Source of the DNA: Candidatus Thalassarchaeum sp.
GTDB lineage: Archaea > Thermoplasmatota > Poseidoniia > Poseidoniales > Thalassarchaeaceae
Direction: 5' to 3'
NCBI GenBank assembly: GCA_022449945.1
Contig: JAKURM010000004.1
Location: 1-51,727 of the forward strand
DNA: 51,727 nt
A program made the translations under genes and the position numbers. Under the pieces are notes generated by a model that saw only the letters and a program-made list of their open reading frames with translations, made no database searches and was not told the DNA's origin. Below, piece after piece: positions 5,265-51,412 of the stretch. Every line of letters starts with the position of its first letter. Positions within the stretch are counted from its first letter, which is position 1.

Positions 5265-5597
5265 TCACCTATCAATCATCAGAATTGCATCTGTCGGACA
5301 GGCTAGGACACATAGCTTACAACCAGTACACGGGTCTCTGAGAATCCTAGCCTTTCTGTTGACATCTACACTCATAATTGGGCTTGCCAGAGGGGTGTCG
5401 TAGAGCTCAATAGCATCATCATCGCATACAATCGTACACTGGTCACACCCAATACACTGTTCTTCCTTAACCCATGCAACAGCATCATCTCCACCCTTCA
5501 AACTAGCCTCTTCTTCAGCCTTCATAGAATTAAGGAGCCTCCTAATTCTTGCCTGTTCTACGGCCCTCCTTTCCAATAGGTCCGGTATCTCAGTCAT
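5265..5597 (-). CDS. 2[4Fe-4S] ferredoxin with N-terminal helical extension
   Basis: CIGCDQCTIVC and CTGCKLCVLACP motifs. Confidence 0.9.
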   Translation of the reverse strand: MTEIPDLLERRAVEQARIRRLLNSMKAEEEASLKGGDDAVAWVKEEQCIGCDQCTIVCDDDAIELYDTPLASPIMSVDVNRKARILRDPCTGCKLCVLACPTDAILMIDR

Positions 5598-5664: not shown

Positions 5665-8481
5665 CTAAGTCGACTTCGACTCTTCGATCTGTCTAGCTAG
5701 GAAACTCACAACGTCTAAAATTTCGAAGTCATGCCTTGGGTCTCCTTCGAACTTCAGGCATTCGAAGTGTGCTACGCACTTGGGGCATGTTGTCAGCATC
5801 ACATCTGCACCCGTAGCATTCACCTCGTCAAATCTCTGCAACCTTAGAGCACGGCTATTTTCATTACACGACATCATGCTAGAAACGCCACAACAAAGGG
5901 CATCTTCACCCGTATGCTCCATTTCGACTAGCTCGACACCATCTACCGCCCTGACCAAGTCGCGCGGCTCTTCGTAGATATTCATCTGCCTACCGAGTCG
6001 GCAAGGGTCGTGATAAGTCACAGTAACATCATTCTCGGTTCGTAGACTCATGTCAAATCCATTCTCTACTAGGAATTCTGTGGTATGCATAACCTTCATG
6101 TCGTCAAGTTCGTAGTCCAAGGCAAAGGTGCGGAAGCACTCTGCACACGATGTCACCAGAGTGTCTATCCCACTCTGTCCGAGCTTCTTCTGGTTGTATG
6201 CCTTTAACTTTTCAAACACCTCAGTCATTCCTTGCCACTTCTGATCATGCCCGCAGCACTTCAGGAAGTCCCTTCCTAGATATGTAACGGACTCCCCCAT
6301 CTCCTCGAAAATCGTGAATGCCGCGTTTGTGGTCTCTCCGAGGTCCATCTCACCATGATTGACATGGCTGAATATCATCTCTTGATCGATGTAGTCTACG
6401 CATCCTGGGTAGTAGCCAACGCTAGAATCCAGGGGATAGTCTTCTACAGAGATGAACGACTCATCTGCGTCTTCTTCGGCTTCAGCAGCGAGAACTGCTT
6501 GTAATAATGTGTGCGGAATCTCAGCAGCGGGAGGCCCTCCGACAACCAGATTCCTCCTGATGTCGATGTATGAGTCATAGTCAACCAGCTGTGGACATGC
6601 GTTAGTGCATGCGGTGCATGTTAAGCACGAGTACAATGGGACACCGTCATCCTCATTGTTCCATGTATTGTATATGATGTTCAGCTTGTCTCCAGCATTG
6701 AATAGCCTGACTGGACAAGCATCGTCGCACAGGTCGCATCCATAGCACTTGTTCATCTCCCATTCGTAACCCCTTGCCATGCTTCTCATTAGCATGAACA
6801 CAATTGCACCGACTCCTAGGCAAGGAATAAACATCGAATAGATTAGCTTGGCATCCAGACTCTTTGGGTTTTTGTGGTAGGTCGGGTTTTCCAGTGCAAG
6901 GGAGGCTAATTCTGTTAATTCCCTTGTACTATCGGCTCTCGCCAAAGTAGTCCCTTCTTCGGATAGTAGGAGGGGCTGGTAAGCAACAACCGAGAAGTCG
7001 GAAATCATCATGACGCTATCGTTCACTTCGCTGGATTTGGTGACGAACGTAACTGTGTATGATTGAGCCGAATCTAAGTAGATGGTTGCAGACTGGCACG
7101 ATGTTCCACTATTTTCCCACACTAGCTGTCCAGCCTCATCCGTTAGCACCAGGCTTTGTGTGTGGAGTCCAGCATTCCTGACTGTAGTTCTGAAATTGCA
7201 CGAAATATCAGCAGGAACTTCGGAGAGTCCTAGGTCTTCGACCATGAATGTCCTAGACTCTATGATTTCAATATCGCTAGCATCCTCTGAGCCATTATAG
7301 ATTACGTCATCTGCACCAATATTCCTGGAGGTAGATATATCGCTATGCCCATTAACCCCACTGAAGTCAATGATCGTTGACCTAGTCGGTTGGAAAACCC
7401 CCCAATTCGACCAGTATATCGCAGGCATGACACACCATTCGTCGTAGGAGTCGCCTTCGTGGATATCCTCCCAAACTGATAGTTGGCCGGAACTCTCGTA
7501 TGGCAGGCACTTGTCACCCCACTCATCCCAGACATTTCCTTTGTCTACATGGACAAGAGTGTCTGATGGCTGTCCTCTGATGCCATCCAATTCAACCAGC
7601 TTCGCCTCGTTCTGATACTCCCAGAATCCCATTGTCCCGAGTCCTCTCTGATTCCAGAAGCCATTTTCGTAGACAGGCCATGTTATTGCACATAGCAGTA
7701 CGCTAGCGACCAGTGAACCTACCGCAATCTGCCTTCCAAGGATTGGGGTTAATCTAGAACCCATGGGTCCAAGGAGGAACTTTCTCACCGAGAAATACAA
7801 GAGTGCAAAAACGAAAATTCCCGTCAGAACCCATGGAACTGCATTGAATACCTCTGCTGTCCACGGAGACTGCGTGCCGCATCTGAAAACCCCATGCGAG
7901 GTCCCCCAACAGTAGTCTGTTCGATTTTGTCCATACATTTCTAGGAAGATGTTTATCGAGAAAACTGAGATGAACCAAACGTGAGCAAGATATACTGCCC
8001 CAGCAGTAGCAAACCACGGATCTTCGACCCCCCTCTTCTCCCTCTTCCCAATGATGAAGGGGGGTAGTGCCAAGATTCCTACTGGGAGGCCAGTAATTAG
8101 CGCACCCCATACTCCTGCATTCCACGAGACGATCGGTTGTCCAAAGAACTCGCCTATTGGGCCAGCAGGAATGTCGAACTGAGGTAGGTATTCCCCCCAT
8201 CGGAGGTATCCATAGGAGAACAAAACATACCAGTCTGGGAAAACGAAACCAGCCTGGGCATATGGGTCAGCCGCATTGTGCAAAGGTGGGGGGATTATCC
8301 AAGAGTAGAATGCAATAACCATCATTATCGATGCGAAAATTATGGTGTCACGAAGTACCTCTGTTGGCCAGAATGCATGTCCGGTGAAAACCCTCCTCCT
8401 CTCATCTTCCCCTTCTAGTAGGCCTTCCTTTTCACTGATGTAGGTGTCAGCTATCCTTCCGAATCTTTCTATCATCCCCAT
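5665..8481 (-). CDS. Cytochrome b6f subunit IV-like domain fused to an extracellular domain and an HdrD/GlpC-like Fe-S CCG oxidoreductase
   Basis: N-terminal FWPxEV..PPPL..ADP..PDWY (Qo motif); C-terminal CYGCDLCDDACP and CLTCTACTNACP, plus two CCG domains (YYPGC..CCG..CAEC; YHDPC..CCG..CPKC). Confidence 0.85.
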   Translation of the reverse strand: MGMIERFGRIADTYISEKEGLLEGEDERRRVFTGHAFWPTEVLRDTIIFASIMMVIAFYSWIIPPPLHNAADPYAQAGFVFPDWYVLFSYGYLRWGEYLPQFDIPAGPIGEFFGQPIVSWNAGVWGALITGLPVGILALPPFIIGKREKRGVEDPWFATAGAVYLAHVWFISVFSINIFLEMYGQNRTDYCWGTSHGVFRCGTQSPWTAEVFNAVPWVLTGIFVFALLYFSVRKFLLGPMGSRLTPILGRQIAVGSLVASVLLCAITWPVYENGFWNQRGLGTMGFWEYQNEAKLVELDGIRGQPSDTLVHVDKGNVWDEWGDKCLPYESSGQLSVWEDIHEGDSYDEWCVMPAIYWSNWGVFQPTRSTIIDFSGVNGHSDISTSRNIGADDVIYNGSEDASDIEIIESRTFMVEDLGLSEVPADISCNFRTTVRNAGLHTQSLVLTDEAGQLVWENSGTSCQSATIYLDSAQSYTVTFVTKSSEVNDSVMMISDFSVVAYQPLLLSEEGTTLARADSTRELTELASLALENPTYHKNPKSLDAKLIYSMFIPCLGVGAIVFMLMRSMARGYEWEMNKCYGCDLCDDACPVRLFNAGDKLNIIYNTWNNEDDGVPLYSCLTCTACTNACPQLVDYDSYIDIRRNLVVGGPPAAEIPHTLLQAVLAAEAEEDADESFISVEDYPLDSSVGYYPGCVDYIDQEMIFSHVNHGEMDLGETTNAAFTIFEEMGESVTYLGRDFLKCCGHDQKWQGMTEVFEKLKAYNQKKLGQSGIDTLVTSCAECFRTFALDYELDDMKVMHTTEFLVENGFDMSLRTENDVTVTYHDPCRLGRQMNIYEEPRDLVRAVDGVELVEMEHTGEDALCCGVSSMMSCNENSRALRLQRFDEVNATGADVMLTTCPKCVAHFECLKFEGDPRHDFEILDVVSFLARQIEESKST

Positions 8482-8490
8482 GTAAACACC

Positions 8491-9363
8491 TCAATGTGGC
8501 TCCGCAATTCCTTGTACCCAAACGATGAAGAGGTGGGCCAGAATAAGGGCCGTTACTATCACCGGTAGAACGAATACATGCAAGAAGTACATCCTAACCA
8601 CAGTCTGTCCCGTGAGAACGGTATCCCCAAAAAGTGCGTTAGCCATCCATTCCCCTATCAAGGGCGTGGCATTAGCCATGTTTATTCCAATCGTGGCCGC
8701 GCCAAACGCCAGACTATCCCATGGAAGTAGATAACCGGAGTAACCGAAAAAGATGGTGAAGAACATCAAAGCCACTCCAATTAGCCAGTTTAGCTCCCTG
8801 GGGTTCCTGTAAGCACCAGTGAAGTAAACCCTGCACATGTGTAGGAATACAGCTGCTACCATGAAGTGAGTAGTCCAGTGGTGAATTGAACGGATTATGT
8901 ATCCGAATGGTAACTCTAGCATAATGAATTCCATTGATGCGTATGCAGGAGTCGGGTCAGAGCTTAGGTCTCCCCCTGGGACATAGTAGAAGCCAAGAAT
9001 CGTCCCAGAAATTACCAGGATAATGAATGCTAGGAATGAGATCCCACCTAAGCAGTACAATGGATACCAATACCAAATAATCCTTAGTTTATACTTCTCA
9101 GCATGAGTTAGTGGCATTTGCCTGTGCATACTGTGGTAAGAATCCCGGCTCATGCCCCAATAGTCCTGGATCCGAAATCTAGTATCAAGCCAAGAGAATG
9201 CCCATAGGAAGGCCTTCTCTGCCAATCCCATACTTCCTGCGTTAGTTTCAACTGCCCTGAGGATATCTTTTCTCGGAATGTCATCCCTCTCCCTCCTTAG
9301 GGTGAATGCAACGATAACCACGACAATTGCTATGAAAATCCAAAGGAACCAGAACTGAATCAT
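8491..9363 (-). CDS. Cytochrome b6-like (split cytochrome b, N-terminal part)
   Basis: YCLGGI, IRSIHHW..FLHMCRV, PRELNW, GYLLPWD, FLHVFVLP..AHL; four heme-ligating His. Confidence 0.93.
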   Translation of the reverse strand: MIQFWFLWIFIAIVVVIVAFTLRRERDDIPRKDILRAVETNAGSMGLAEKAFLWAFSWLDTRFRIQDYWGMSRDSYHSMHRQMPLTHAEKYKLRIIWYWYPLYCLGGISFLAFIILVISGTILGFYYVPGGDLSSDPTPAYASMEFIMLELPFGYIIRSIHHWTTHFMVAAVFLHMCRVYFTGAYRNPRELNWLIGVALMFFTIFFGYSGYLLPWDSLAFGAATIGINMANATPLIGEWMANALFGDTVLTGQTVVRMYFLHVFVLPVIVTALILAHLFIVWVQGIAEPH

Positions 9364-9372
9364 ATTTTTTAC

Positions 9373-10227
9373 CTACCCACAGAATGTGTACCAATCCTTG
9401 AAATCTGGGAGAGCCTCGATTGCATCGCCATTTACAATGAAGGGAATTAGTGGCATGCCATATGGGGCGGGCCCACCTGTCTTTTTTATTCCAATGAAGT
9501 CGAAGTCTTGTCCATTAGACCTGTTCCGAGCAGTGTTCTTCTCAATTACGGTAGGGTCATATCTACTGGAGTGACAGATACAGAAGAGCTTGTTTCCGCC
9601 CGAGTCAGTTCCACCCGGAAGCCAATTGTCTGCAGTGAAGTCATTGTTCACCAACTGCCATCCAGGTATACAACATAGATGCGGGCACCTGGAGAAAATG
9701 ATGATCATGTTGTCGTGAATTGAAAGCGAGGCAAACTCCTCTTTCTCTTCAATTTCATAACCAGAGCCTACGTATGCTCCGCTGGCCGTAACTCCATCCA
9801 TAAGTTGGAATCTCGGCTCGTTCTCACTCAGGGGCCTGTTCGTATTTTCTTCATGTGGTACGTAGACCGCGACAACAGGTAGTCCGGACCAAAGCCCTGC
9901 AGCAGCGGACATTCCCGTGGACGAATCGGCTGCTTCATCTCTGAATGCCTGCATGGTCATCGGTTGCTTATCCATATTCCCATACCATACTTCAGATCCC
10001 TTGGGTGCGTAGAAGAGTATAGCCTGATCCGAACCTCCCGAACTAGCCTGACCCATTAAAAATGAGGCAAAACCTACACTGCCTAGACTTGCCATGGTAA
10101 TCAGGCCGGCTGCCGTATTGAACGACATCCGCATGAATTCTCTTCGATCAACGAATCCTACGCCCTCTTTTGCCGAATCCTCATTTTCATGCAAAGGCCG
10201 TAGTTTGAATCTCCTAGCCATCATCAC
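9373..10227 (-). CDS. Rieske 2Fe-2S protein of a Rieske/cytochrome b complex
   Basis: Tat motif DRREFM followed by a TM helix; CPHLCC and CICHSSRYD boxes; GGPAP. Confidence 0.92.
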   Translation of the reverse strand: MMMARRFKLRPLHENEDSAKEGVGFVDRREFMRMSFNTAAGLITMASLGSVGFASFLMGQASSGGSDQAILFYAPKGSEVWYGNMDKQPMTMQAFRDEAADSSTGMSAAAGLWSGLPVVAVYVPHEENTNRPLSENEPRFQLMDGVTASGAYVGSGYEIEEKEEFASLSIHDNMIIIFSRCPHLCCIPGWQLVNNDFTADNWLPGGTDSGGNKLFCICHSSRYDPTVIEKNTARNRSNGQDFDFIGIKKTGGPAPYGMPLIPFIVNGDAIEALPDFKDWYTFCG

Positions 10228-10673
10228 ACCTCATATTTCTTCCATGCTTCTGGATCATTCCTTGTGATGTACTTGTTTCGCCTATGCTTTACTATGATTA
10301 CATCTGGTAAGACATACTTTAGGTACACGATTCCCATGATAATTAGGGTTAGAAGGGTCATTGCTAGGTTGAATGATAGTAGCTGCTGATCCCAGTGTTT
10401 GAATAGTCCATATGAAAGAGAGCCCGCCCAGAAAAGAGTCCAAAGAATTCCCCATAGTCCAACTAGTACGATCAACCAAGAGTCTCCTGACGGCGAAACG
10501 CTCGCTCTAACAATTGTTCCAGGCTTTGGTGAGTTGAATACACCATGATCAACTGCGGCCGAGTAAGACTCTTCAGAAATAGTGACATCTTCAAGTGCCT
10601 TGCGTGCGTCTTCCACGCTTACTTCTCCTGACTCGACTTGTCGGAGTAGGCGCATTACCACGTCGTCCTTCAT
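10224..10673 (-). CDS. Hypothetical membrane protein (2 TM) in the Rieske/cyt b operon
   Basis: 4-bp overlaps with both neighbours; short N-terminal helical hairpin plus two TM helices. Confidence 0.75.
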   Translation of the reverse strand: MKDDVVMRLLRQVESGEVSVEDARKALEDVTISEESYSAAVDHGVFNSPKPGTIVRASVSPSGDSWLIVLVGLWGILWTLFWAGSLSYGLFKHWDQQLLSFNLAMTLLTLIIMGIVYLKYVLPDVIIVKHRRNKYITRNDPEAWKKYEV

Positions 10674-11494
10674 AGTTGATCTCCCCTTCTAAGATGCTTT
10701 ATTCTCAGTTTTAGTAGATTACTCCGGCCAACATAATGTCTCGAGAATCCGTACCTGAGAAACAATCCACAGAAGATGATAACAAGCATTACTGCTGCGA
10801 ATCCTAGTAATCCTAGCCAGTGAGCTAGGAGCTCAGCACCCATGTGATGGAGATCTGTGTGCTCTTCCACTGGGGCAGGAGGGTTAATTTCACCATTGCC
10901 GGAGAATATCGTTCTGACCTTGCCGTTATCCGTCCCCTCATCAACACTGGCGGTAAGCCTATTCCACCTGTCTAGGTTTGACGGAGCCATATCGCCATTG
11001 ACAGCATTTCCAGCAACCCAGACAGTCATTGAACCCGATGATTCTTCCGGAGCAGTCCATACAATACTCCACTTCCTGTCAGCCGTGCTGGATCCAGCAT
11101 TGGTGTGCGTTAGGGTGGCCAGGTCACCCTCCCAGTTTTGAACCAGCCCTTCAAAACCATCTCCAGGTGAAAGTTCACCAGAGCTGACTCTCATCGAGAA
11201 TCCCCCAGTGTATGAATCAGCAGATATCTCAGGTCCACCAATCAATTGGATAATTAATTCATATTGCCCCCCAGCCTCGAATTGGTAGGGAAATCCATCT
11301 AAGATCACTGTAACTGAGTTATCCGGACTTTCAGAATGGCACGTGCATCCCGCTAGCGATACATCTCCTTGGTTATTGGCATCGCCACCAACTCCAGTGT
11401 GCAGTGCTTCGCTCGATCCAGCAAATATTGCAATTACAACCAACGTTGCCAAGTACTTTCGATGGGAAATCATTGTCTGTTTCTCACCTTCCAC
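10670..11494 (-). CDS. Secreted Reeler-like beta-sandwich protein with CxCH motif and C-terminal membrane anchor
   Basis: Signal peptide, GCTCH, Reeler-type Y.L.I..GGF..LTH..W..WTAP..GNAVNGD pattern, C-terminal TM helix. The true start may be a few codons downstream. Confidence 0.7.
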   Translation of the reverse strand: MEGEKQTMISHRKYLATLVVIAIFAGSSEALHTGVGGDANNQGDVSLAGCTCHSESPDNSVTVILDGFPYQFEAGGQYELIIQLIGGPEISADSYTGGFSMRVSSGELSPGDGFEGLVQNWEGDLATLTHTNAGSSTADRKWSIVWTAPEESSGSMTVWVAGNAVNGDMAPSNLDRWNRLTASVDEGTDNGKVRTIFSGNGEINPPAPVEEHTDLHHMGAELLAHWLGLLGFAAVMLVIIFCGLFLRYGFSRHYVGRSNLLKLRIKHLRRGDQL

Positions 11495-40097: not shown

Positions 40098-41138
40098 GTG
40101 TCTCAACCACTGGTGGAATGCGTTCCAAACTTTAGCGAAGGCCGAGACAAGTCAGTTATAGGCAGAATAACGGCCCCAATAGAGGCTATTCCAGGAGTCA
40201 CACTACTGGATGTTGACATGGGCGCCGACTTCAACAGGACCGTGGTCACGATGGTGGGCAATCCTGATGACGTCCTCAAAGCAGCCATTGAGTGCACCAT
40301 AGTGGCTTCAGAGCTCATTGACATGAGGGGCCACACCGGTGAGCACGCCAGGATGGGTGCTGTTGATGTTGTCCCATTCATTCCTATCAACGGTGTATCT
40401 ATCGAGGAATGCGCCAGCCTCTCTGAAATTTATGCAGAGACGGTTTCGCAAAAACTCGACCTTCCAGTATATCTCTATGCGGAGGCTGCTAGGAGTGAGC
40501 AGAGGGTGAGGCTACCAGACATCAGGAGAGGCGAGTACGAAGGACTGCAGGAAAAGATGCAATCCGAGATTTGGGCTCCAGATTACGGGCCAAGAGAATT
40601 CAACCCAAAGCTTGGTGCTACGGCTACCGGAGCTAGGCAGATTCTAATCGCATACAATGTGAATCTGAACTCAGATGACAAAACCAAGGCCAATTCGATC
40701 GCATCTATGATTCGAACAAGCGGCTCCTTGGTTAAGGACGTAAACGGGGAGAAAATAATCGGGGAGGACGGTAAACCTCTAAGGAATCCTGGTAAATTTA
40801 AGGCTCTCCAGGCTGCCGGTTGGATGTACGATGATTCTACTGCCCAGGTGTCGATGAATCTCCTTGATCACAAGGTCACAGGATTGCATCATGTCACTGA
40901 GGCAATCCGCGAAGAGTCCCAGAAAATTGGCTTAAACGTGGTTGCGGGGGAGCTGGTAGGACTAGTCCCCCTAGAAGCCATGATTTCAGCAGGTAGGAAT
41001 TATCACAAAGAACCCGATTCTGCTGACGAATCGTCACTAGTCGATGCAGCAATAAAGGGCCTCATGCTCGATATTTTAGGTGAATTTAATCCCGAATCAA
41101 GTATCATTGAATGGGCCATTCGTGAGGCGTTGGGATGA
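40098..41138 (+). CDS. Glutamate formiminotransferase
   Basis: LVECVPNFSEGRD, NRTVVT, GEHARMGAVDVVPF, IRRGEYEG, GAR..LIAYNVNL. Confidence 0.95.
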   Translation: MSQPLVECVPNFSEGRDKSVIGRITAPIEAIPGVTLLDVDMGADFNRTVVTMVGNPDDVLKAAIECTIVASELIDMRGHTGEHARMGAVDVVPFIPINGVSIEECASLSEIYAETVSQKLDLPVYLYAEAARSEQRVRLPDIRRGEYEGLQEKMQSEIWAPDYGPREFNPKLGATATGARQILIAYNVNLNSDDKTKANSIASMIRTSGSLVKDVNGEKIIGEDGKPLRNPGKFKALQAAGWMYDDSTAQVSMNLLDHKVTGLHHVTEAIREESQKIGLNVVAGELVGLVPLEAMISAGRNYHKEPDSADESSLVDAAIKGLMLDILGEFNPESSIIEWAIREALG

Positions 41139-41758
41139 ACGAGGGATACGAGGAAGTACTCAGATCAATAGCATCCTCCGATCCTACTCCTGGAGGTGGT
41201 TCGGTCGCAGCATTATCCCTTGCTCACGCACAATCACTGACCATCATGGTAGCTAGACTTACGGAGGGCAAGGAGAAGTGGGCAGATGGGCACGAGTTGG
41301 CGGAGGCAATAATCTCGAAATGGGATCCTAAAATGGAAGTTGCCATTGGGCTGGCAGAGAAGGATGCACATGCATTTGACCAAGTAATGGGGGCCTATCG
41401 TCTCCCAAAGAGCGACGAAAAAGAGAAGGAATTCAGGAATTCGTCTATCAGAGAAGCAACAATTGGGGCTGCTGAAGCACCCCTGGAAACAGCGACAGAA
41501 GCATTGGATCTCCTATCCGACATTGAGTCATTCAGCCATTCATGCAACTCAAATGCATTGACTGACCTTGCCTCAGCGGCGGAACTATCGAGTTCAGCGG
41601 TAAAAATTGCATCGATGAATGTTAGAATTAATCTGGATTTCATTGAGGGAGAGGATGTCGATGAACTCTCGACGAGATTGGATGCCGTAGTGGGGCAATC
41701 TTCCTCATCACTAGTGAGGATTAGAACCAAAGTTTCCGAGAGGCTTGGTTGGAAATGA
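41135..41758 (+). CDS. Formiminotetrahydrofolate cyclodeaminase
   Basis: ASSDPTPGGGSVAAL, D..AF..VM.AYRLPK, N.NAxTD, NVRINL. Confidence 0.92.
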   Translation: MNEGYEEVLRSIASSDPTPGGGSVAALSLAHAQSLTIMVARLTEGKEKWADGHELAEAIISKWDPKMEVAIGLAEKDAHAFDQVMGAYRLPKSDEKEKEFRNSSIREATIGAAEAPLETATEALDLLSDIESFSHSCNSNALTDLASAAELSSSAVKIASMNVRINLDFIEGEDVDELSTRLDAVVGQSSSSLVRIRTKVSERLGWK

Positions 41759-43770
41759 AACTAGACAGAGACTCCTTCAACGGTATTCCAGATACTCTTC
41801 CACCACACAAGACCATAGATCCCGCAGTCCCCCATGCCCCCCCAAGGCCCCAAGTTTTGGATGAAAGAGGCAGGGTGCTGTCTATTGAAAACGCTTTGAG
41901 GTACTTCCCAGAAGATTGGCACGAGACTCTCGCCAAGGAGTTCCTGGATGAGCTGGACCAGCATGGCCACATATACATGCATAGGTTCAGGCCAGACTAC
42001 GAAATGCATGCCAGGCCAATCTCGGATTACGATGCCCACTCTAAGTCCGCAGCAGCAATAATGCTGATGATTCAGAACAACCTAGATCCCAATGTCGCCC
42101 AGTTTCCACACGAATTGATTACCTACGGGGCCAATGGGGCCGTTTTCCAGAACTGGGCGCAGTACCTGCTTACCATGGAGTATCTCTGCAAGATTAGGGA
42201 AGATCAGACATTAGTAATATACTCCGGCCATCCATTGGGAATTTTCCCCTCTAGCCAAGAATCTCCGATGGTAGTAGTCACGAATGGAATGGTCATCCCA
42301 AACTACTCTTCTAAATTGGACTATGAGAGGATGAACGCCTTGGGGGTTTCTCAGTACGGACAGATGACGGCCGGATCGTACATGTACATAGGCCCTCAGG
42401 GAATCGTACACGGAACAACCATCACGATACTAAACGCTGCTAGAAAGTACCTCGGAAAAACCTCTGAAGAAGGGCTAGGGGGCGTGCTATACGTCACATC
42501 TGGTCTTGGTGGGATGTCCGGGGCCCAGGCTAAGGCTACGGTAATTGCGGGTGCAGTGTGCATAATCGCCGAAGTCGATCCATCCCCAGCAAGAAAGAGG
42601 CATTCACAGGGTTGGCTAACAGAGCTTCACGAAGACATTGAGAAATTAGTAGATCGTGCTGAGCAGGCCATTTTCAGAAAGGAGGCAGTCTCTCTTGGAT
42701 ATGTGGGCAACATCGTAGAACTCCTGGAGTACCTTGTGGAGAGGGGCACCCATGTCGATCTAGCTAGCGATCAGACCAGCCTACACAATCCATGGCTAGG
42801 AGGATACATTCCAGTCGGCCTGACACTTGAAGAGAGTACAGAACTGCTGATGGAAGACCCTGCCAAATTCAAGGAATCAGTCAAATTTTCATTAAGGAGG
42901 CATGTAGCAGCAATCAATTCTCTTTGCTCCAAAGGGACCCGTTTCTGGGATTACGGAAACGCCTTCCTGCTCGAGTCAAGCAGAGCAGGAGCGGACATCA
43001 AAAAAGAGGACGGTTCCTTTCTCTACCCTTCCTACGTGGAAGACATAATGGGGCCAATGTGCTTCGATTATGGCTTCGGACCGTTCAGATGGGTCTGCAC
43101 CTCCGGCGAGGAGAGCGATCTGAGAAAGACGGACCAGATCGCAAAGGATGTCCTAGAGCAATTATCCTATGGTTGTCCGGATGAAATTCGAACTCAGTAC
43201 ATAGACAACATAAGATGGATTACTGAGGCAGAGAAGCATGGCCTGGTGGTTGGTAGCAAGGCCAGAATCCTATATGCGGATGAAGTGGGAAGGAGGGCCA
43301 TTGCGAGGGAATTCAACAAGGCAATCTCGGATGGCACTGTCACCGCTCCAATTGTTCTTGGTCGCGATCATCACGACGTAAGCGGTACTGACAGCCCATA
43401 TAGGGAGACTGCGAACATATACGACGGATCTATGTTCACCGCAGACATGTCAGTACAGAACTTCGTAGGGGACTCGTTCAGAGGGGCAACATGGGTCAGC
43501 CTGCACAACGGGGGAGGCGTTGGCTGGGGAGAGGCCATAAACGGTGGATTTGGACTTGTTATCGATGGTTCAGAACAATCTCAAGAGAATATCGACTCTA
43601 TGATCTCATGGGATGTGAATAACGGCCTTGCTAGGAGGTCATGGGCGAGGAATCCAGCTGCAAGATTCGCCATCTCCAGGGCCATGGAATCCGATGATAG
43701 GATTGACGTCACTATGCCCAATATCGTGGACGAAAGAGTGCTAAGGGACTTGTTCGAAGGTACTCGATGA
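41749..43770 (+). CDS. hutU: Urocanate hydratase (long form)
   Basis: NNLDP.VAQFPHELITYG, GQMTAGSYMYIGPQGIVHGT, GLGGMSGAQ, GRDHHD, LHNGGGVG. Start is TTG 41749 or ATG 41755. Confidence 0.97.
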   Translation: MEMKLDRDSFNGIPDTLPPHKTIDPAVPHAPPRPQVLDERGRVLSIENALRYFPEDWHETLAKEFLDELDQHGHIYMHRFRPDYEMHARPISDYDAHSKSAAAIMLMIQNNLDPNVAQFPHELITYGANGAVFQNWAQYLLTMEYLCKIREDQTLVIYSGHPLGIFPSSQESPMVVVTNGMVIPNYSSKLDYERMNALGVSQYGQMTAGSYMYIGPQGIVHGTTITILNAARKYLGKTSEEGLGGVLYVTSGLGGMSGAQAKATVIAGAVCIIAEVDPSPARKRHSQGWLTELHEDIEKLVDRAEQAIFRKEAVSLGYVGNIVELLEYLVERGTHVDLASDQTSLHNPWLGGYIPVGLTLEESTELLMEDPAKFKESVKFSLRRHVAAINSLCSKGTRFWDYGNAFLLESSRAGADIKKEDGSFLYPSYVEDIMGPMCFDYGFGPFRWVCTSGEESDLRKTDQIAKDVLEQLSYGCPDEIRTQYIDNIRWITEAEKHGLVVGSKARILYADEVGRRAIAREFNKAISDGTVTAPIVLGRDHHDVSGTDSPYRETANIYDGSMFTADMSVQNFVGDSFRGATWVSLHNGGGVGWGEAINGGFGLVIDGSEQSQENIDSMISWDVNNGLARRSWARNPAARFAISRAMESDDRIDVTMPNIVDERVLRDLFEGTR

Positions 43771-43801
43771 CTCTATTTGGGAATCACGGTTCGATACACC
43801 T

Positions 43802-45325
43802 ATGGTTGATATCCTGATAGATGGGTGCTCCTTGACTCTGGAGCAGGCTATGTCGTTAGCTTCTGGCCAATCCACTGCTTCTCTATCAATAGAATCAAGG
43901 GAAAAGATGTGCGAATCACGAGCTGCAGTAGAGGATATAGTCCGTTCTGGAGACACTGTATACGGGATAAATACAGGTTTCGGGGCAATGTCATCGGTTA
44001 GAATACAAGACGACGAAATAGAGGCTCTTCAGGCAAATCTGGTCAGAAGCCATGCCTGTGGCGTAGGAGAGAGAATGGAGCCAGAGCACGTACTCCTAAT
44101 GATGGTTTTCAGGGCCAATTCAATCGCGAAGGGTATCTCCGGCTCGAGACCCGAGGTCGTCGATCTGATCCTCTCGATGGTTAACTCGAGGATATCGCCC
44201 GAAGTACCACGAATCGGGTCTCTCGGAGCATCTGGAGATCTAGCTCCTCTCTCTCACATGGCATTGTCAATGATGGGGGAGGGAAAATGCTCAGTCTACG
44301 AAAACGGCTTATGGGAAAGTCGAGATAGCATGGATGCCCTTTCAGATGCTGGCTTGGAACCGATAAAACTCCTTGCGAAGGAAGGACTCTCACTGATCAA
44401 CGGGACAAGCCAGATGTGTGCATTTCTTGCTGTAACAGTATTAAACATGGAGACTCTTGCCTTCGCTGCTGATGCTTCATTGGCTTGCTCATTGGAGGCC
44501 ATTCGGGGATCCCAAAAGCCATTTGACCCTAGAATACAGGCATCTCGACCGCAATTCGGGCAAGCTGTCTCCGCTGCTAGGATTCTGGAACTTCTTTCTG
44601 ATTCCGAGATTTCGACTTCCGATGGGGATTACGACAGGGTACAGGACGCATACTGTTTCAGGGGCGCCCCTCAAGTCCCTGGCCCCGTTATCGATCTACT
44701 ACGAGCAACGAGGAGGATGCTGGAAATTGAGATCAACAGTGCTACTGACAACCCCCTAGTATTCGTGGAAGGGGACGATGCCGAAATTATCAGCGGAGGA
44801 AATTTCCATGGACAAAATCTGGCCCTTGCCAGTGATGCGATAGCCATTGCATGTCACGAACTAGCCGCAATCTCAGAGAGAAGGATAAACCAGCTCTTGG
44901 ATCCAAAGTGGAGCGGCCAGAAAGCCTTCCTCGCCACCAAAGAGGGACTTGAGAGCGGACTGATGATAATTCAGTACGTTGCTGCCTCGATAATTTCAGA
45001 ATTGCACTTACTAGCAAACCCTGCTACTACGAGCAACACTCCAGTCAGCATGGGCAAGGAGGACCACGCATCGATGGGATCGACGGGCTGCCACAGGGCC
45101 CTTCGGTCAACTATGCTTCTTTCCCAGGCCATAGCAAACGAGATGGTTTGCTCCTCAGAGGCCTTGGATGGAATCGATGAAAAGGCCGGAGAGGGAGTCT
45201 CGAAGATTCACAAATGGGTCAGGACAATAGTCTCTCCGTTAGATGGTGATAGAACAATGACGGATGAGTGCGAGGCTTTGTCGCGAGCAATAGTAGGAGG
45301 GCACCTCTCCAGCTTATTCGGGTGA
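43802..45325 (+). CDS. hutH: Histidine ammonia-lyase
   Basis: YGINTGFG, GSLGASGDLAPLSH (MIO-forming ASG), KEGLSLING, NSATDNP, SGGNFHG, EDHASMG. Confidence 0.96.
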   Translation: MVDILIDGCSLTLEQAMSLASGQSTASLSIESREKMCESRAAVEDIVRSGDTVYGINTGFGAMSSVRIQDDEIEALQANLVRSHACGVGERMEPEHVLLMMVFRANSIAKGISGSRPEVVDLILSMVNSRISPEVPRIGSLGASGDLAPLSHMALSMMGEGKCSVYENGLWESRDSMDALSDAGLEPIKLLAKEGLSLINGTSQMCAFLAVTVLNMETLAFAADASLACSLEAIRGSQKPFDPRIQASRPQFGQAVSAARILELLSDSEISTSDGDYDRVQDAYCFRGAPQVPGPVIDLLRATRRMLEIEINSATDNPLVFVEGDDAEIISGGNFHGQNLALASDAIAIACHELAAISERRINQLLDPKWSGQKAFLATKEGLESGLMIIQYVAASIISELHLLANPATTSNTPVSMGKEDHASMGSTGCHRALRSTMLLSQAIANEMVCSSEALDGIDEKAGEGVSKIHKWVRTIVSPLDGDRTMTDECEALSRAIVGGHLSSLFG

Positions 45326-49029: not shown

Positions 49030-49854
49030 GTGCAGAGGAGGAGAAGGAGCAAGCCCGCGCCAAAGGACGTATTTGGCAGTTCCCAACCCGCCCAGCCAAC
49101 AAAGTCCCCAACTCGGTCCAGACCTCCACTACCTTCGCGACCGCGTACCCAGATTACCCCTCCATCGGTTCCTGGAGCCAAGAGCAAGGACGATCAAAAG
49201 CCCACTACGGAGAAACCGAGTGTCGTCGAGCCAATTCTGGAAACTCCAGAGGATAGTTCAGAGCCAATAGATGAATCTGAAGTGAAGGTGGAAGCAGATC
49301 CACAAGAGGAAATTCTCGAGGAGCAGCTTCTAGCTAAACAGCCAAAGCAGAAGAAGACACTTGGTTTGAGCAAGAAGGAAGCGGTACTTGATGCACCTGC
49401 CGAAACTGTGGAAAAACCCCACACCTCAACAAGTCAGAAGGCCAGGGAACTGATAGAGAGCAGCATTCTACGGGCATCTAAACCCGTGGCGACACCTGTA
49501 ACCCCCACAGCAAAGAAGATCGAAACACCCGTGGCGAAGCCAGAAGTCAAGCCAAAAACACAGAGGAAGTTCCGAAACAGAGTCTCTTCATACCAACCTG
49601 CAAATCGCGCCAGGAGACTGGACAGGAGCAGACACATGGAGTACAAATACGAAATGCGAGGAGTCCTGGTCGATATTGGAGTCCCAGAAGAGCATCGATC
49701 CAGTCTCCTTGCCACAATTTGGGCTAGGGGGGAGAGGCAGACCACAAAGGAGGCCAAGGACTTCATCTTGGAAAAGATGGATGAGGGTATAATTGACGAT
49801 GAGCAGCACGACATACTGATCAAGATTGTCGATGGCTACACAGTTAGACGATAA
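49030..49854 (+). CDS. Hypothetical protein: Pro/Lys/Glu-rich disordered N-terminus and compact helical C-terminal domain
   Basis: 274-aa ORF in operon orientation; low-complexity first ~180 aa, ordered-looking last ~85 aa. Confidence 0.7.
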   Translation: MQRRRRSKPAPKDVFGSSQPAQPTKSPTRSRPPLPSRPRTQITPPSVPGAKSKDDQKPTTEKPSVVEPILETPEDSSEPIDESEVKVEADPQEEILEEQLLAKQPKQKKTLGLSKKEAVLDAPAETVEKPHTSTSQKARELIESSILRASKPVATPVTPTAKKIETPVAKPEVKPKTQRKFRNRVSSYQPANRARRLDRSRHMEYKYEMRGVLVDIGVPEEHRSSLLATIWARGERQTTKEAKDFILEKMDEGIIDDEQHDILIKIVDGYTVRR

Positions 49855-49894
49855 CATCAGAATGGTTCTTGTCCGTGTGCTTAGTGGGACGTTC

Positions 49895-51412
49895 ATGCCC
49901 AATGGCAGTAAAGACTCCTCACCAGCCGGCTCTCCACCATACCGCCGTGGAATACATGCAGGAATGTACAGGGACAGGCTATGGACCATGAGGCAATATG
50001 CCGGATTCTCTACTCCATCAAAGACCAACCAACGTTTCAGGGCACTCCTCGATGGAGGGCAAACAGGAATCTCTGTAGCATTCGACCTACCAACTCAACT
50101 TGGCCTCGATTCCGATGACCACCAATCGGCCGGTGAGGTGGGGAAGGTAGGAGTCGCTATTGACTCAATTCATGACATGAGAGTCTTATTTGATGGAATT
50201 GACCTAGGGAGAGTTTCCACATCAATGACGATAAATGCGCCTGCAACGACGCTCCTAGCACTCTATGTCGCAGTCGCAGACGAGAGAGGCGTCCGTCGAA
50301 ACGAAATATCCGGAACTGTGCAGAATGACATCCTCAAGGAATATATGGCTAGAGGGCTATACGTATATCCCCCAGAGCAGTCAGTAAGACTAACTACTGA
50401 CCTGATGAACTGGTGCTCCAACAATGCCCCCAGATGGAACACAATTTCCGTTAGTGGTTACCATCTCAGGGAGGCAGGATGCACCGCTGCACAGGAGGTC
50501 GGAATGACATTGTCCAATGCATTATTCTATGCCAGGAGCGCCATAGATTCAGGAATGGAGTTCGACGAATTTGCACCACGGATGTCATTCTTTTTCGCTT
50601 GCCACAACGATTTCCTAGAAGAAATCGCCAAGTTTCGTGCCGCTAGGGAGCTCTGGCATAAATTAGTACTAGACGAGTTCGGTCCATCCGACCCCCGTTC
50701 ATCGCAGCTGAGATTCCACACACAGACATCAGGTGTCACCCTCACCGCACAACAACCCCTGAACAACGCAATTCGCGTTTCATACCAGGCTCTTGCAGCC
50801 GTCCTAGGTGGTACTCAATCACTTCATACTAATAGCTACGACGAGGCACTCGGCCTCCCTACCGAGGATTCCGTAACCATCGCTCTCCGGACTCAGCAGA
50901 TTATCGCAGAGGAGACAGGAATCGCCTCTCACGTAGACCCAATGGGAGGTTCCGAGGCCGTGGAGGAACTAACTGAGAAGATCATCTCTGATTCGCATTC
51001 CATCATCCGGAAGATTGACTCGATGGGAGGTGCCATGGAATGTGTAAAGTCCGGACACCAGCAGAGGCTGATTCACGAAAGTGCTTGGGTTCAACTGAAG
51101 GGGATAGAATCCGGAAGCGAGCTTGTTGTGGGCGTGAATTCCCATTCAAACGAGGACGATCCCGTTTTCGAGGGCATGATAATCGATCCGAAGGACGAGC
51201 GTGATAAGGTGGGCGAACTAGTCGTTATGAAATCAAACCGGGACGAGGCACGAGTCAGTGAATCCCTAGCTGCTCTGGAAGAAATATGTAAGGGGGACGG
51301 AAATGTCATGGATGCACTTATTGTCGCTCTGAAGGCGGAGGCAACAGTAGGGGAAGTCAATGGGGTTATGAGAGAAGTTTTCGGTACATGGATGGCTCCT
51401 AGTGGTGTTTGA
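49895..51412 (+). CDS. Methylmalonyl-CoA mutase large (catalytic) subunit
   Basis: WTMRQYAGF (Tyr typical of methylmalonyl specificity), AFDLPTQ.G.DSD, STSMTIN, GTVQNDILKEY, SGYH.REAG, QSLHTN..DEAL; no B12 domain. Confidence 0.96.
   Translation: MPNGSKDSSPAGSPPYRRGIHAGMYRDRLWTMRQYAGFSTPSKTNQRFRALLDGGQTGISVAFDLPTQLGLDSDDHQSAGEVGKVGVAIDSIHDMRVLFDGIDLGRVSTSMTINAPATTLLALYVAVADERGVRRNEISGTVQNDILKEYMARGLYVYPPEQSVRLTTDLMNWCSNNAPRWNTISVSGYHLREAGCTAAQEVGMTLSNALFYARSAIDSGMEFDEFAPRMSFFFACHNDFLEEIAKFRAARELWHKLVLDEFGPSDPRSSQLRFHTQTSGVTLTAQQPLNNAIRVSYQALAAVLGGTQSLHTNSYDEALGLPTEDSVTIALRTQQIIAEETGIASHVDPMGGSEAVEELTEKIISDSHSIIRKIDSMGGAMECVKSGHQQRLIHESAWVQLKGIESGSELVVGVNSHSNEDDPVFEGMIIDPKDERDKVGELVVMKSNRDEARVSESLAALEEICKGDGNVMDALIVALKAEATVGEVNGVMREVFGTWMAPSGV

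Follow-up and report, generated by a model that had tools for sequence, protein, structure and literature searches.

Archaeal split cytochromes b are described, in the available text of two papers, as lacking the cysteine of haem ci (Baymann, 2012, PMC3509893; Dibrova, 2017, PMC5600118), and the available part of a third confines the CxGG motif to Firmicutes, cyanobacteria and plastids, and one other bacterial clade (PMC4122944). Does a cytochrome b from a marine group II (MGII) archaeon that encodes this motif, next to a partner subunit fused to an iron-sulfur module, carry the additional haem, and could that haem exchange electrons with the module? The gene lies in a 51,727-nucleotide stretch of a Candidatus Thalassarchaeum contig (the window). 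For MGII and Thermoplasmatota, our literature search returned no description of a haem-ci cysteine or an HdrD-like fusion.

A split cytochrome b and its operon

The cytochrome b start codon lies 9 nt past the stop of the upstream Rieske gene (Table 1). The 290-aa product matches PF00033 in a Pfam search (E 3.7e-41), and its five best solved sequences are all cytochromes b6, from 6rqf_I (E 8.9e-42) to 2zt9_A (E 1.2e-39), with residues 102-289 aligned to b6 33-214. The preliminary description, which had proposed an archaeal cytochrome b with b6 hallmarks, was correct in this respect. We take the product to be the haem-binding subunit of a Rieske/cytochrome b complex from a member of the Poseidoniales (Thalassarchaeaceae). 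The ligands of haems bL and bH are H161 and H175 of helix B, with 13 residues between them, and H262 and H277 of helix D, with exactly 14 (VFVLPVIVTALILA); all four are invariant in a 19-sequence alignment (A1) and are aligned with the ligands of b6.

Table 1. Features of the operon, by position in the window
Feature	Position	Strand	Size	Basis or remarks
Split b6-type cytochrome b gene	8491..9363	(-)	290 aa	PF00033 and b6 PDB matches
Cys104 codon TGC	9054..9052	(-)		Ungapped alignment to PetB Cys35
Subunit-IV-like N-terminal part, helices E, F, G	7942..8481	(-)		PDWY Qo motif, residues 82-85
MGII-specific beta-rich insertion	6847..7671	(-)	~275 aa	Flanking TM 214-232, 252-270, 546-564
Two-[4Fe-4S] ferredoxin domain	6589..6759	(-)		CxxCxxCxxxCP twice: C579/582/585/589, C619/622/625/629
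Two CCG domains	5764..6414	(-)		C694, C742-C743, C779, C782; C827, C863-C864, C899, C902
Rieske iron-sulfur subunit	9373..10227	(-)	284 aa	CPHLCC box I, CICHSSRY box II
2x[4Fe-4S] ferredoxin, RnfB/PorD-like	5265..5597	(-)	110 aa	Conserved directly downstream of fusion gene
Protein with two TM helices	10224..10673	(-)	149 aa	Weak DUF7318 match
Protein with N-terminal signal or TM and C-terminal TM anchor	10670..11494	(-)	274 aa	Choice-of-anchor-V/Reeler-like beta-sandwich

The reported split from subunit IV and the extra N-terminal transmembrane (TM) helix are both present. The reading frame ends 13 residues after H277, placing the split between helices D and E, and the next gene (5665..8481, 938 aa) opens with a subunit-IV-like part bearing PDWY. 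This part aligns with PetD 7r0w_J across PDWY/PEWY (E 0.097), its P82, D83, W84 and Y85 are invariant (alignment A2), and its homologues reach PF00032. The additional helix (TM0, residues 4-22, hydropathy 2.88) precedes helices A-D; the hydropathy scan detects TM0 and helices A, C and D, and helix B is assigned by comparison with the homologous b6.

The 14-residue helix D spacing had also been offered as a b6 hallmark. The spacing is there, but it is not specific to b6: all 124 of the 150 diverse representatives in which both helix D histidines could be aligned share it (124/124), including 70 that are 350 aa or longer (unsplit forms), and it is ruled out as a hallmark. On these alignments the cysteine, not the spacing, is the informative b6 character.

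The protein shares with PetB of the b6f complex (PDB 6rqf, 7r0w, 1vf5, 1q90) the split, the four histidines, the spacing and the Y-C-L-G-G motif at Cys35. It differs from PetB in TM0 and in its N-terminal region, which exceeds that of PetB by about 19 residues, and from b6f in its Qo motif (PDWY, not PEWY) and its subunit IV, which carries a fused Fe-S/CCG module and has six TM helices in MGII (four in other families). With TM0 and these further helices, the b6 pattern of seven TM helices (4 + 3) was not found. The NCBIfam cytochrome b6 model (PRK03735) gives 194.8 bits, under its cut-off of 325, and the best NCBIfam model, cytb_ExtP, 206.7 bits, under a cut-off of 290. In the column of PetB Arg207 (His202+5) the archaeal protein has a tryptophan, W282, invariant in alignment A1. 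In b6f, Arg207 is reported to belong to the path that carries protons to the Qn pocket (PMC7908018), and the archaeal pocket thus differs from that of b6f.

Haloarchaeal split cytochromes b (the halocyanin-Rieske/cytb cluster or 'subfamily N', as described in the available text of PMC3509893 and PMC5600118) are the nearest relatives outside the Thermoplasmatota, with 52-57% identity. They are split at the same place, have four helices in the second subunit and share the 14-residue spacing; their published TM pattern is 4+4 (PMC3509893), which the layout of the archaeal complex matches, rather than the 4+3 of b6f. Neither the Cys nor the second Gly is present in the haloarchaeal sequences, which read [AST]-L-G-[SLF], whereas MGII and Thermoplasmatota members keep the Cys.

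The archaeal clade is separate on our tree. Subunit IV of the archaeal complex carries the cytoplasmic Fe-S module, where that of Bacillus is fused to a cytochrome c. By published description, firmicute and heliobacterial QcrB resemble the archaeal protein in their non-photosynthetic or anoxygenic context, in CxGG (YCLGG in Heliobacterium), and in a PDWY-type Qo motif common to Gram-positives and the archaeal fusion (PMC4122944).

The Rieske subunit has a twin-arginine motif (DRREF) and a TM anchor; it matches TIGR01416 under the cut-off (E 5.8e-9) and no Pfam family at 0.01, and a homologue at another locus (L097) matches PF00355. The 149-aa protein is kept in the operon of Cys and non-Cys clades alike. 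The 274-aa protein scores 83.7 bits with NF041895 (cut-off 42), its fold matches are the Reeler domain (E 2e-6) and, weakly, cytochrome f (E 2e-4), and its G-C-x-C-H motif occurs in 120/120 homologues; it may act as an electron acceptor on the outer face and as a substrate of Ccm. The downstream ferredoxin gene is also found at loci L085, L087, L088, L089 and L104 and at many MGIII-like loci.

Conservation of Cys104 and the CxGG motif

The heptapeptide LYCLGGI (residues 102-108, with YCLGG at 103-107) lies opposite FYCLGGI of b6 with no gap nearby, pairing Cys104 with PetB Cys35, the thioether ligand of haem ci/cn. The motif and its cysteine codon are exactly as first described. Lack of conservation among orthologues, which would have spoken against a haem-binding role, was not seen: YCLGG is present in 80/80 Poseidoniales (MGII) loci, counted in a related-loci search of genome contigs that returned close MGII loci only, and the Cys in 59/62 of the closest database clusters, the other three comprising one with Ser and two truncated or deleted sequences.

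In the database alignment the Cys is present in 100/121 aligned rows; 16/19 substitutions fall in haloarchaeal-type sequences, and the remaining three are P0044, P0082 and P0097. Wider diversity was covered with Thermoplasmatota loci sampled from genomes. Families f1, f3, f4, f23, f25, f29 and f31 of the Thermoplasmatota retain it, and among the diverse representatives having a residue in that column just 35/123 have Cys. The sister clade that includes the haloarchaea has [TSA]-x-G-S in place of CxGG, and CLGG lineages flank this Cys-less clade on both sides of the cytochrome b tree (FastTree, midpoint-rooted, no support values shown). The motif is therefore probably ancestral and maintained. 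Within the Cys-less clade, the second glycine has been lost along with the Cys (G107 to S or L), as would be expected of a motif that acts as a single unit.

A different variant, YSLGG with Ser instead of Cys, occurs in 59 MGIII-like metagenome loci. These are also changed at L111F, F113Y and five helix D positions (263, 268, 271, 272, 276). To judge from these loci a near-identical complex can do without the thioether, since an abundant MGIII-like lineage has swapped Cys for Ser and kept the whole gene cluster.

The case for a third haem

What the sequences establish is the fold family, the set of ligand histidines, the equivalent position of Cys104 and PetB Cys35, the strict conservation of the Cys and the two glycines, and the operon. 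We consider it probable from these sequence characters that the protein is a three-haem, b6-type cytochrome in an archaeal variant of the Rieske/cytochrome b complex, and predict a covalent haem. The twin-arginine motif of the Rieske subunit implies that the cluster side faces outward, and Cys104 the cytoplasm. The third haem (ci/cn) would most likely sit where the Qi pocket opens to the cytoplasm, joined to Cys104 through one thioether bond, the two glycines of CxGG making room for it, in the arrangement of the cyanobacterial, plastid, Bacillus and heliobacterial enzymes. The biochemically tested CxGG lineages (Bacillus, heliobacteria and oxygenic phototrophs) are all reported to have haem ci (Kao and Hunte, 2014, PMC4122944). 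If attached, the archaeal haem would participate in quinone reduction; proposed roles of haem ci/cn include concerted two-electron quinone reduction, protection from oxygen, and the supply of stromal electrons for cyclic flow (PMC7908018).

How the haem would be attached was approached through the known maturation systems, a search suggested in the preliminary description. Ccm is present, but among 31 Poseidoniales genomes, 10 of them >= 90% complete, CCB1 (PF12046), CCB2/CCB4 (PF11152) and CCB3/YGGT (PF02325) each matched 0/31, and ResB was not found in the genome of the window (G000). The Synechococcus control matched in every CCB search. The archaeon differs from b6f organisms in this lack of CCB genes and resembles B. 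subtilis, which has haem ci without CCB1 or CCB2/4; the B. subtilis control genome gave no CCB1 or CCB2/4 match but did match YGGT. The absence of CCB genes therefore does not exclude haem ci. System I is represented by PF01578 (CcmC/CcmF) in 31/31 genomes, mostly at two loci each (contigs C19 and C1 of G000), and by CcmE (PF03100) on contig C102 of G000. Ccm acts on the outer face of the membrane, and topology rules it out as the attachment system of Cys104, which faces the cytoplasm. Because no CCB-type gene was found, attachment would be spontaneous or would use an unknown factor.

The lack of a CCB-type maturation factor in these 31 genomes speaks for a two-haem, haloarchaea-like cytochrome, in which Cys104 carries no haem and the CxGG motif is inherited and kept for packing against haem bH or quinone. 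Sister lineages manage with Ser, Thr or Ala in place of the Cys, Trp replaces Arg207 of b6f, and the score falls under the curated b6 cut-off, all of which are in keeping with a packing role. This role would hardly account for a Cys that is strict in the 80/80 MGII loci and in deep Thermoplasmatota families, nor for a motif identical to that of enzymes proven to bind haem ci (PMC4122944). Loss of the Cys also goes along with further changes around the pocket, suggesting that the pocket has an occupant when the Cys is present. We regard the two-haem cytochrome as somewhat unlikely.

The fused iron-sulfur module and its possible wiring

The 938-aa fusion protein follows the pattern of HdrD/GlpC/EtfD-type modules, as read from its sequence: two CxxCxxCxxxCP motifs, then two C...CCG...CxxC domains. 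The ferredoxin domain begins 15 residues past the last TM helix, matches Fer4_8/9/10 and aligns with the cubane-cluster cysteines of EtfD (9ojn_A). The CCG domains match PF02754 in two stretches (E 1.2e-23) and have non-cubane cluster sites of the HdrB/HdrD/EtfD type. All eight Fer4 cysteines and all CCG cysteines except C743 are invariant among 13 sequences; L088 and L089 (family f23) have CVG in place of CCG in the first domain. The arrangement of two cubane [4Fe-4S] clusters and two CCG sites directly after a membrane helix is as described for EtfD/EMO (PDB 9ojn) and HdrD of HdrDE (PMC13083937), but here the module is paired in the membrane with a Rieske/cytochrome b core and not a NarI/HdrE-like haem b domain. 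By topology the module would lie on the cytoplasmic side.

The MGII-specific beta-rich insertion, inferred to be extracytoplasmic, is missing from the L087-L090 fusions. AlphaFold2 modelling of the whole fusion from a 13-row alignment gave a mean pLDDT of 54.7, with only the CCG domains and the insertion moderately confident; strands of the insertion at 388-500 had pLDDT 65-85 in this overall poor model. A complex prediction of cytochrome b 40-290 and fusion 1-200 with three haems, with fusion 540-938 as the partner, returned a score of 0.02 (mark 0.32).

The preliminary description went on to suggest that haem ci could connect to the fused Fe-S domain. Topology makes the link plausible, but the Cys and the module do not strictly co-occur, and two lineages have uncoupled them. 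In family f29 the YCLGG motif stands without an Fe-S/CCG module, and Fe-S/CCG genes are present in 49/59 of the MGIII-like YSLGG loci, the other 10 contigs ending within ~810 nt of the cytochrome b gene. The joint absence of Cys and Fe-S/CCG amounts to about one evolutionary event on the midpoint-rooted FastTree tree. A search for subunit IV residues near Qi specific to the Cys clade found E41, R44 and D45 conserved in both clades. Because haem ci would be the cofactor nearest the cytoplasm, we tentatively propose that it may exchange electrons with the 2x[4Fe-4S] and 2xCCG module. Such a relay would resemble EtfD, in which the first cubane cluster lies ~7 A from haem b.

In EtfD electrons are described as passing from ETF to the CCG clusters, then the cubanes, haem b and menaquinone (PMC13083937). 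An ETF:quinone link for beta-oxidation was considered for the fused module and downgraded, as the genome encodes a far better EtfD orthologue on contig C46 (693 aa). This protein matches 9ojn with E 1.6e-104, compared with E 8.6e-22 for the fused module against 9ojn_A, and the fused domain is 24% identical to it. EtfAB genes lie beside an acyl-CoA dehydrogenase in the genome, and no Fer4_ETF_QO match was found there.

Electrons could enter from another cytoplasmic donor, with the Fer4/CCG domains and the RnfB-like ferredoxin feeding low-potential electrons through the clusters and ci/bH to quinone at Qi. Such a complex, supplied by ferredoxin or an unknown dehydrogenase, would act as a donor:quinone reductase as well as a quinol oxidase. 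EtfD, the closest solved homologue, runs in this direction (PMC13083937; preprint 10.64898/2026.08.18.745454), a ferredoxin gene is conserved beside the fusion gene, and an orphan RnfB in MGII has been noted (Tully, 2019, PMC6336850). In b6f, haem cn has been discussed as a possible entry for stromal electrons (PMC7908018). Electron entry is nevertheless unlikely in our estimation: the ETF route is already served by the genome's own EtfD orthologue, and the uncoupling of Cys and module in two lineages counts against it.

The opposite direction would have electrons from quinol oxidation at Qo pass along bL, bH, ci, the Fe-S clusters and the CCG sites to reduce a cytoplasmic disulfide or other acceptor, as in an HdrDE- or DsrMK-like reductase whose NarI-type cytochrome is replaced by the Rieske/cytochrome b core. 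In MGII the complete HdrB-type pattern of five cysteines is found in each of the two CCG domains, whereas the first CCG site of EtfD has four cysteines, which bind a linear [3Fe-4S] cluster (PMC13083937). Among NCBIfam models the top match is TfrB, a thiol:fumarate reductase subunit whose CCG domain is catalytic (preprint 10.64898/2026.08.18.745454), but every family score, including those of LdhH, GlpC and DsrK, is far under its cut-off. The CVG of family f23 and a step uphill against the membrane potential also weigh against this direction, and no substrate or thiol cofactor system was identified. Electron output through the module is, in our view, very unlikely.

A fuller scheme would give the b6-type complex both a cytoplasmic electron port, from ferredoxin through an Fe-S wire and ci to Qi, and an outer C-x-C-H haem acceptor matured by Ccm. 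We think this combination quite unlikely. If true, it would provide a natural example of the ferredoxin:quinone reductase route that has long been debated for haem cn of b6f, and the outer acceptor would be cytochrome-f-like with an unprecedented C-x-C-H haem motif.

An 'MGII-specific complex III' is mentioned, with no description in the available text, by Tully (2019, PMC6336850), and the present analysis defines it. This complex has a CxGG motif that is conserved in a group ranking among the most abundant planktonic archaea, and an Fe-S module is fused right below the Qi site. With close relatives in which either the Cys or the module has been lost, natural variants can be compared to test the role of haem ci, and the fusion of the partner subunit to an iron-sulfur module may help to reveal the purpose of the extra haem.

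Gene cluster and b6-type features of the cytochrome b

The window corresponds to contig C47 of a MAG (1.34 Mb, 87.7% completeness). Among named genomes, the nearest loci, at 82-99% identity, almost all carry the name Candidatus Poseidoniales, Thalassarchaeaceae or a wider archaeal label, i.e. Marine Group II (MGII).

Coordinates of the gene cluster and of other features discussed in the text
Feature	Position	Strand	Remarks
274-aa membrane-anchored protein	10670-11494	minus	First gene of cluster; choice-of-anchor-V domain
Protein with two TM helices	10224-10673	minus	Second gene
Rieske protein	9373-10227	minus	Third gene; DRREF Tat motif, box I CPHLCC, box II CICHSSRY
Cytochrome b, 290 aa	8491-9363	minus	Fourth gene; Pfam Cytochrome_B, E 3.7e-41
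938-aa fusion protein	5665-8481	minus	Fifth gene
Qo motif PDWY	8236-8247	minus	
MGII insertion, ~275 aa	6847-7671	minus	Within fusion protein
110-aa 2x[4Fe-4S] ferredoxin	5265-5597	minus	Last gene of cluster
Histidine-degradation set and methylmalonyl-CoA mutase parts with MeaB	40098-45322, 609-1942, 49826-51409	plus	
EtfD/EMO orthologue, 693 aa	C46:1355-3436 (L112:1015-3096)		Other contig of the MAG
EtfB-EtfA-acyl-CoA dehydrogenase cluster	C1:48509-52669 (L109/L110)		Other contig of the MAG
Cytochrome b frames with extra upstream domains	L087:8089-9975, L089:8067-10760, L090:413-3610		Other Thermoplasmatota families

The preliminary description had based a b6-like assignment on the motif LYCLGGI, a 14-residue spacing of the helix D histidines and the split from subunit IV, and had also noted an extra N-terminal TM helix. 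The motif is borne out by direct reading of the DNA (residues 102-108, Cys104 codon TGC at 9054..9052) and by alignment of b6 residues 33-214 to query residues 102-289, in which Cys104 falls on Cys35 of FYCLGGI with no gaps nearby. A hydropathy scan places the extra helix at residues 4-22, preceding a four-helix cytochrome b core, and the split holds, as the separate next gene opens with a subunit-IV-like part. The 14-residue gap between H262 and H277, VFVLPVIVTALILA, is present but fails as a b6 hallmark: among 150 representatives drawn from 5961 relatives, both histidines aligned in 124, and all 124 share it (70 of them at least 350 aa long).

When the protein was searched against all solved structures, cytochromes b6 took the five top places (E 8.9e-42 to 1.2e-39), with actinobacterial QcrB next (~1e-30) and cytochromes b of mitochondria or proteobacteria at 1e-20 or weaker. 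Existing database annotations name the protein 'cytochrome B6', and its b6-likeness is already known at that level. The cysteine and the split are common to this protein and b6, whereas Trp stands here in place of b6 Arg207. Scores lie under the NCBIfam cut-offs for both cytochrome b6 (194.8 against 325) and ExtP (206.7 against 290), and by hydropathy the helices of the complex number more than seven, similar to the haloarchaeal 4+4 form in the available text of PMC3509893. Because of the sub-threshold scores, the Trp and the helix count, this is a separate archaeal subfamily outside the curated b6 family, predicted to work in a b6-like manner.

In three loci of other Thermoplasmatota families, read stop to stop, the cytochrome b frame also encodes cupredoxin (PF00127, PF13473) and/or Ig-like (Big_5, Big_7) domains upstream. 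Should each frame prove to be a single gene, outward-facing domains would be anchored by the extra N-terminal TM helix.

Conservation of Cys104 and haem attachment systems

The case for haem ci depends on the cysteine being kept among orthologues, and a genome contig search found YCLGG in 80/80 MGII loci. Among the 62 closest database clusters Cys is present in 59 and Ser in one (P0044, a single member), while in P0040 and P0051 the motif region is gone by deletion or truncation. Across 201 sampled Thermoplasmatota genomes, 78 had a match and 20 regions were fetched; YCLGG occurs in families f1, f3, f4, f23, f25, f29 and f31, Y-[TS]-x-G-S in nine loci of other families, and haloarchaeal-type homologues carry Y-[AST]-L-G-[SLF]. 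In a midpoint-rooted FastTree phylogeny of 142 sequences, shown without support values, haloarchaea and the T/S-x-G-S Thermoplasmatota form a single Cys-less clade with CLGG lineages flanking both sides; positions 104 and 107 discriminate fully between the two types. This arrangement suggests that the archaeal clade had the CLGG motif ancestrally and lost it about once, jointly with the second glycine.

In the available portions of earlier papers, haloarchaea are listed among the few split cytochromes b without the cysteine (Baymann 2012, PMC3509893), CxGG is given as absent from the archaeal short-cytochrome subfamily N (Dibrova 2017, PMC5600118), and the motif is limited to Firmicutes, plastids and cyanobacteria, and the APWY clade (Kao and Hunte 2014, PMC4122944).

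Among the haem attachment systems that the preliminary description had proposed to look for, Ccm was found, and ResB and the CCB factors were not. PF01578 (CcmC/CcmF) occurs in 31/31 Poseidoniales genomes, with two loci in the MAG, which also has CcmE. CCB1, CCB2/CCB4 and YGGT/CCB3 each gave 0/31 in the same genomes (ten at least 90% complete; Synechococcus control positive in every CCB search), and ResB was absent from the results for the MAG. Ccm, which acts at the outer face, is ruled out as the attachment system for Cys104. The CCB absence weighs only mildly against haem ci, because Bacillus subtilis, of a lineage with biochemically shown haem ci (available text of PMC4122944), likewise gave no match to CCB1 and CCB2/4 as a control (YGGT was matched).

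The role of Ccm in this genome is puzzling given the scarcity of CXXCH, found in 19 of 4441 ORFs of at least 70 aa, all short (71-163 aa) and none matching a Pfam cytochrome c family. The 274-aa protein has an N-terminal signal or TM segment, a beta-sandwich and a C-terminal TM anchor, and matches the choice-of-anchor-V model NF041895 at 83.7 bits. G-C-x-C-H is invariant in 120/120 of its homologues and CXXCH occurs in 0/120; at this site two relatives from family f29 have canonical CXXCH and one GATCH. Fold comparison of its model points to Reeler domains (E 2e-6) and, only weakly, to cytochrome f (E 2e-4, TM-score about 0.3). Since the genome carries CcmC/E/F and no recognisable CXXCH cytochrome c, this protein may be a cytochrome-f-like acceptor with haem bound via an unusual CXCH site.

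The fused Fe-S/CCG module and its possible link to haem ci

In the N-terminal, subunit-IV-like part of the fusion protein PDWY is invariant in 13 homologues, and the PetD match is weak (E 0.097). The middle holds extra helices and a beta-rich, MGII-specific insertion; this contains cysteine, is probably extracytoplasmic between two extra TM helices, is missing from homologous fusions of other families and has no family match. Box II of the Rieske protein has the 'S-Y' signature assigned to high-potential Rieske proteins (Kao and Hunte 2014), whereas PDWY is found, in the available text of the same paper, only with low or mid-minus potential ones (PMC4122944). This pairing is unusual.

C-terminal to the last TM helix (546-564) lie two CxxCxxCxxxCP motifs and a complete pair of CCG domains. 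If helices are counted from the N-terminus of subunit IV, which is cytoplasmic, this module falls in the cytoplasm, on the Cys104 side of the membrane. Among solved structures, residues 546-938 come closest to 9ojn_A (E 8.6e-22), which we take to be M. smegmatis EtfD from its length (1042 aa) and match to Rv0338c. Cubane cysteines of the two proteins align, and the Fer4 domain starts 15 residues past the last TM helix of the fusion. In EtfD, the CCG clusters hand electrons to two cubane clusters, from which they reach a haem b ~7 A away and then menaquinone (PMC13083937, available text). By analogy, a cluster near the n-side haems is plausible.

Among the 20 fetched loci YCLGG accompanies the module in 9/9 (fused, or as adjacent split genes in f4), and of the 11 module-less loci nine lack the cysteine and two (f29) keep it, a search of f29 for CCG elsewhere giving weak, partial matches only. 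This co-occurrence looks strong, yet it reflects few events on the tree, about one joint and one discordant loss. The lineage of a Ser variant, P0082, is MGIII-like and kin to f4. Its 80 related metagenome loci comprise 59 with YSLGG, 17 with YCLGG and four with the region missing. Fe-S/CCG genes are seen in 49 of the 59 Ser loci (both parts in 45), and the remaining 10 contigs stop within ~810 nt of the cytochrome b gene. This is clear counter-evidence, and it makes the thioether cysteine dispensable for a module-bearing complex. The Ser variants retain the GG pair and differ at L111F, F113Y and helix D positions 263, 268, 271, 272 and 276; because they form a single clade, this no more than hints at a remodelled pocket. 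The haem ci to Fe-S connection raised in the preliminary description is thus plausible from the cytoplasmic placement and EtfD likeness, but strict co-occurrence does not support it.

Judged from sequence, haem ci is probably present. The likeliest reading, to which we give a modest preference, is a three-haem b6-type cytochrome in which haem ci on Cys104 would line the Qi pocket at the cytoplasmic face; electronic contact between it and the fused Fe-S wire is a more tentative prediction, on the doubtful side. Any such flow could run in either direction. The EtfD precedent and the conserved neighbouring RnfB-like ferredoxin would speak for input from a donor to quinone. ETF is a less likely donor because contig C46 encodes a separate EtfD orthologue (E 1.6e-104 to PDB 9ojn), which shares just 24% identity with the fused domain. 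In favour of output to a cytoplasmic disulfide, both CCG domains have the full five-Cys HdrB-type pattern, and the top family match, though sub-threshold, is TfrB.

Implications for Marine Group II

The EtfD orthologue and the EtfB-EtfA cluster, with no Fer4_ETF_QO match in the genome, suggest that in MGII an EtfD-type enzyme links beta-oxidation to the quinone pool. Histidine-degradation genes (formiminotransferase, cyclodeaminase, urocanase, histidine ammonia-lyase) and the methylmalonyl-CoA mutase parts agree with descriptions of MGII as heterotrophs living on amino acids and fatty acids.

Tully 2019 (PMC6336850) reported an orphan RnfB and a complex III, called 'MGII specific', that comprises cytochrome b and Rieske genes; in the available text neither is analysed further. 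Our literature search found no description of a haem-ci cysteine or HdrD-like fusion in MGII or Thermoplasmatota; supplements of the cited papers may list such sequences. Among b6-type Rieske/cytochrome b complexes, the one found here is a new archaeal variant. The abundant marine Ser lineage (L115-L184), with an otherwise identical gene cluster, and its Cys-retaining sister contigs amount to a natural Cys-to-Ser experiment inside one order.
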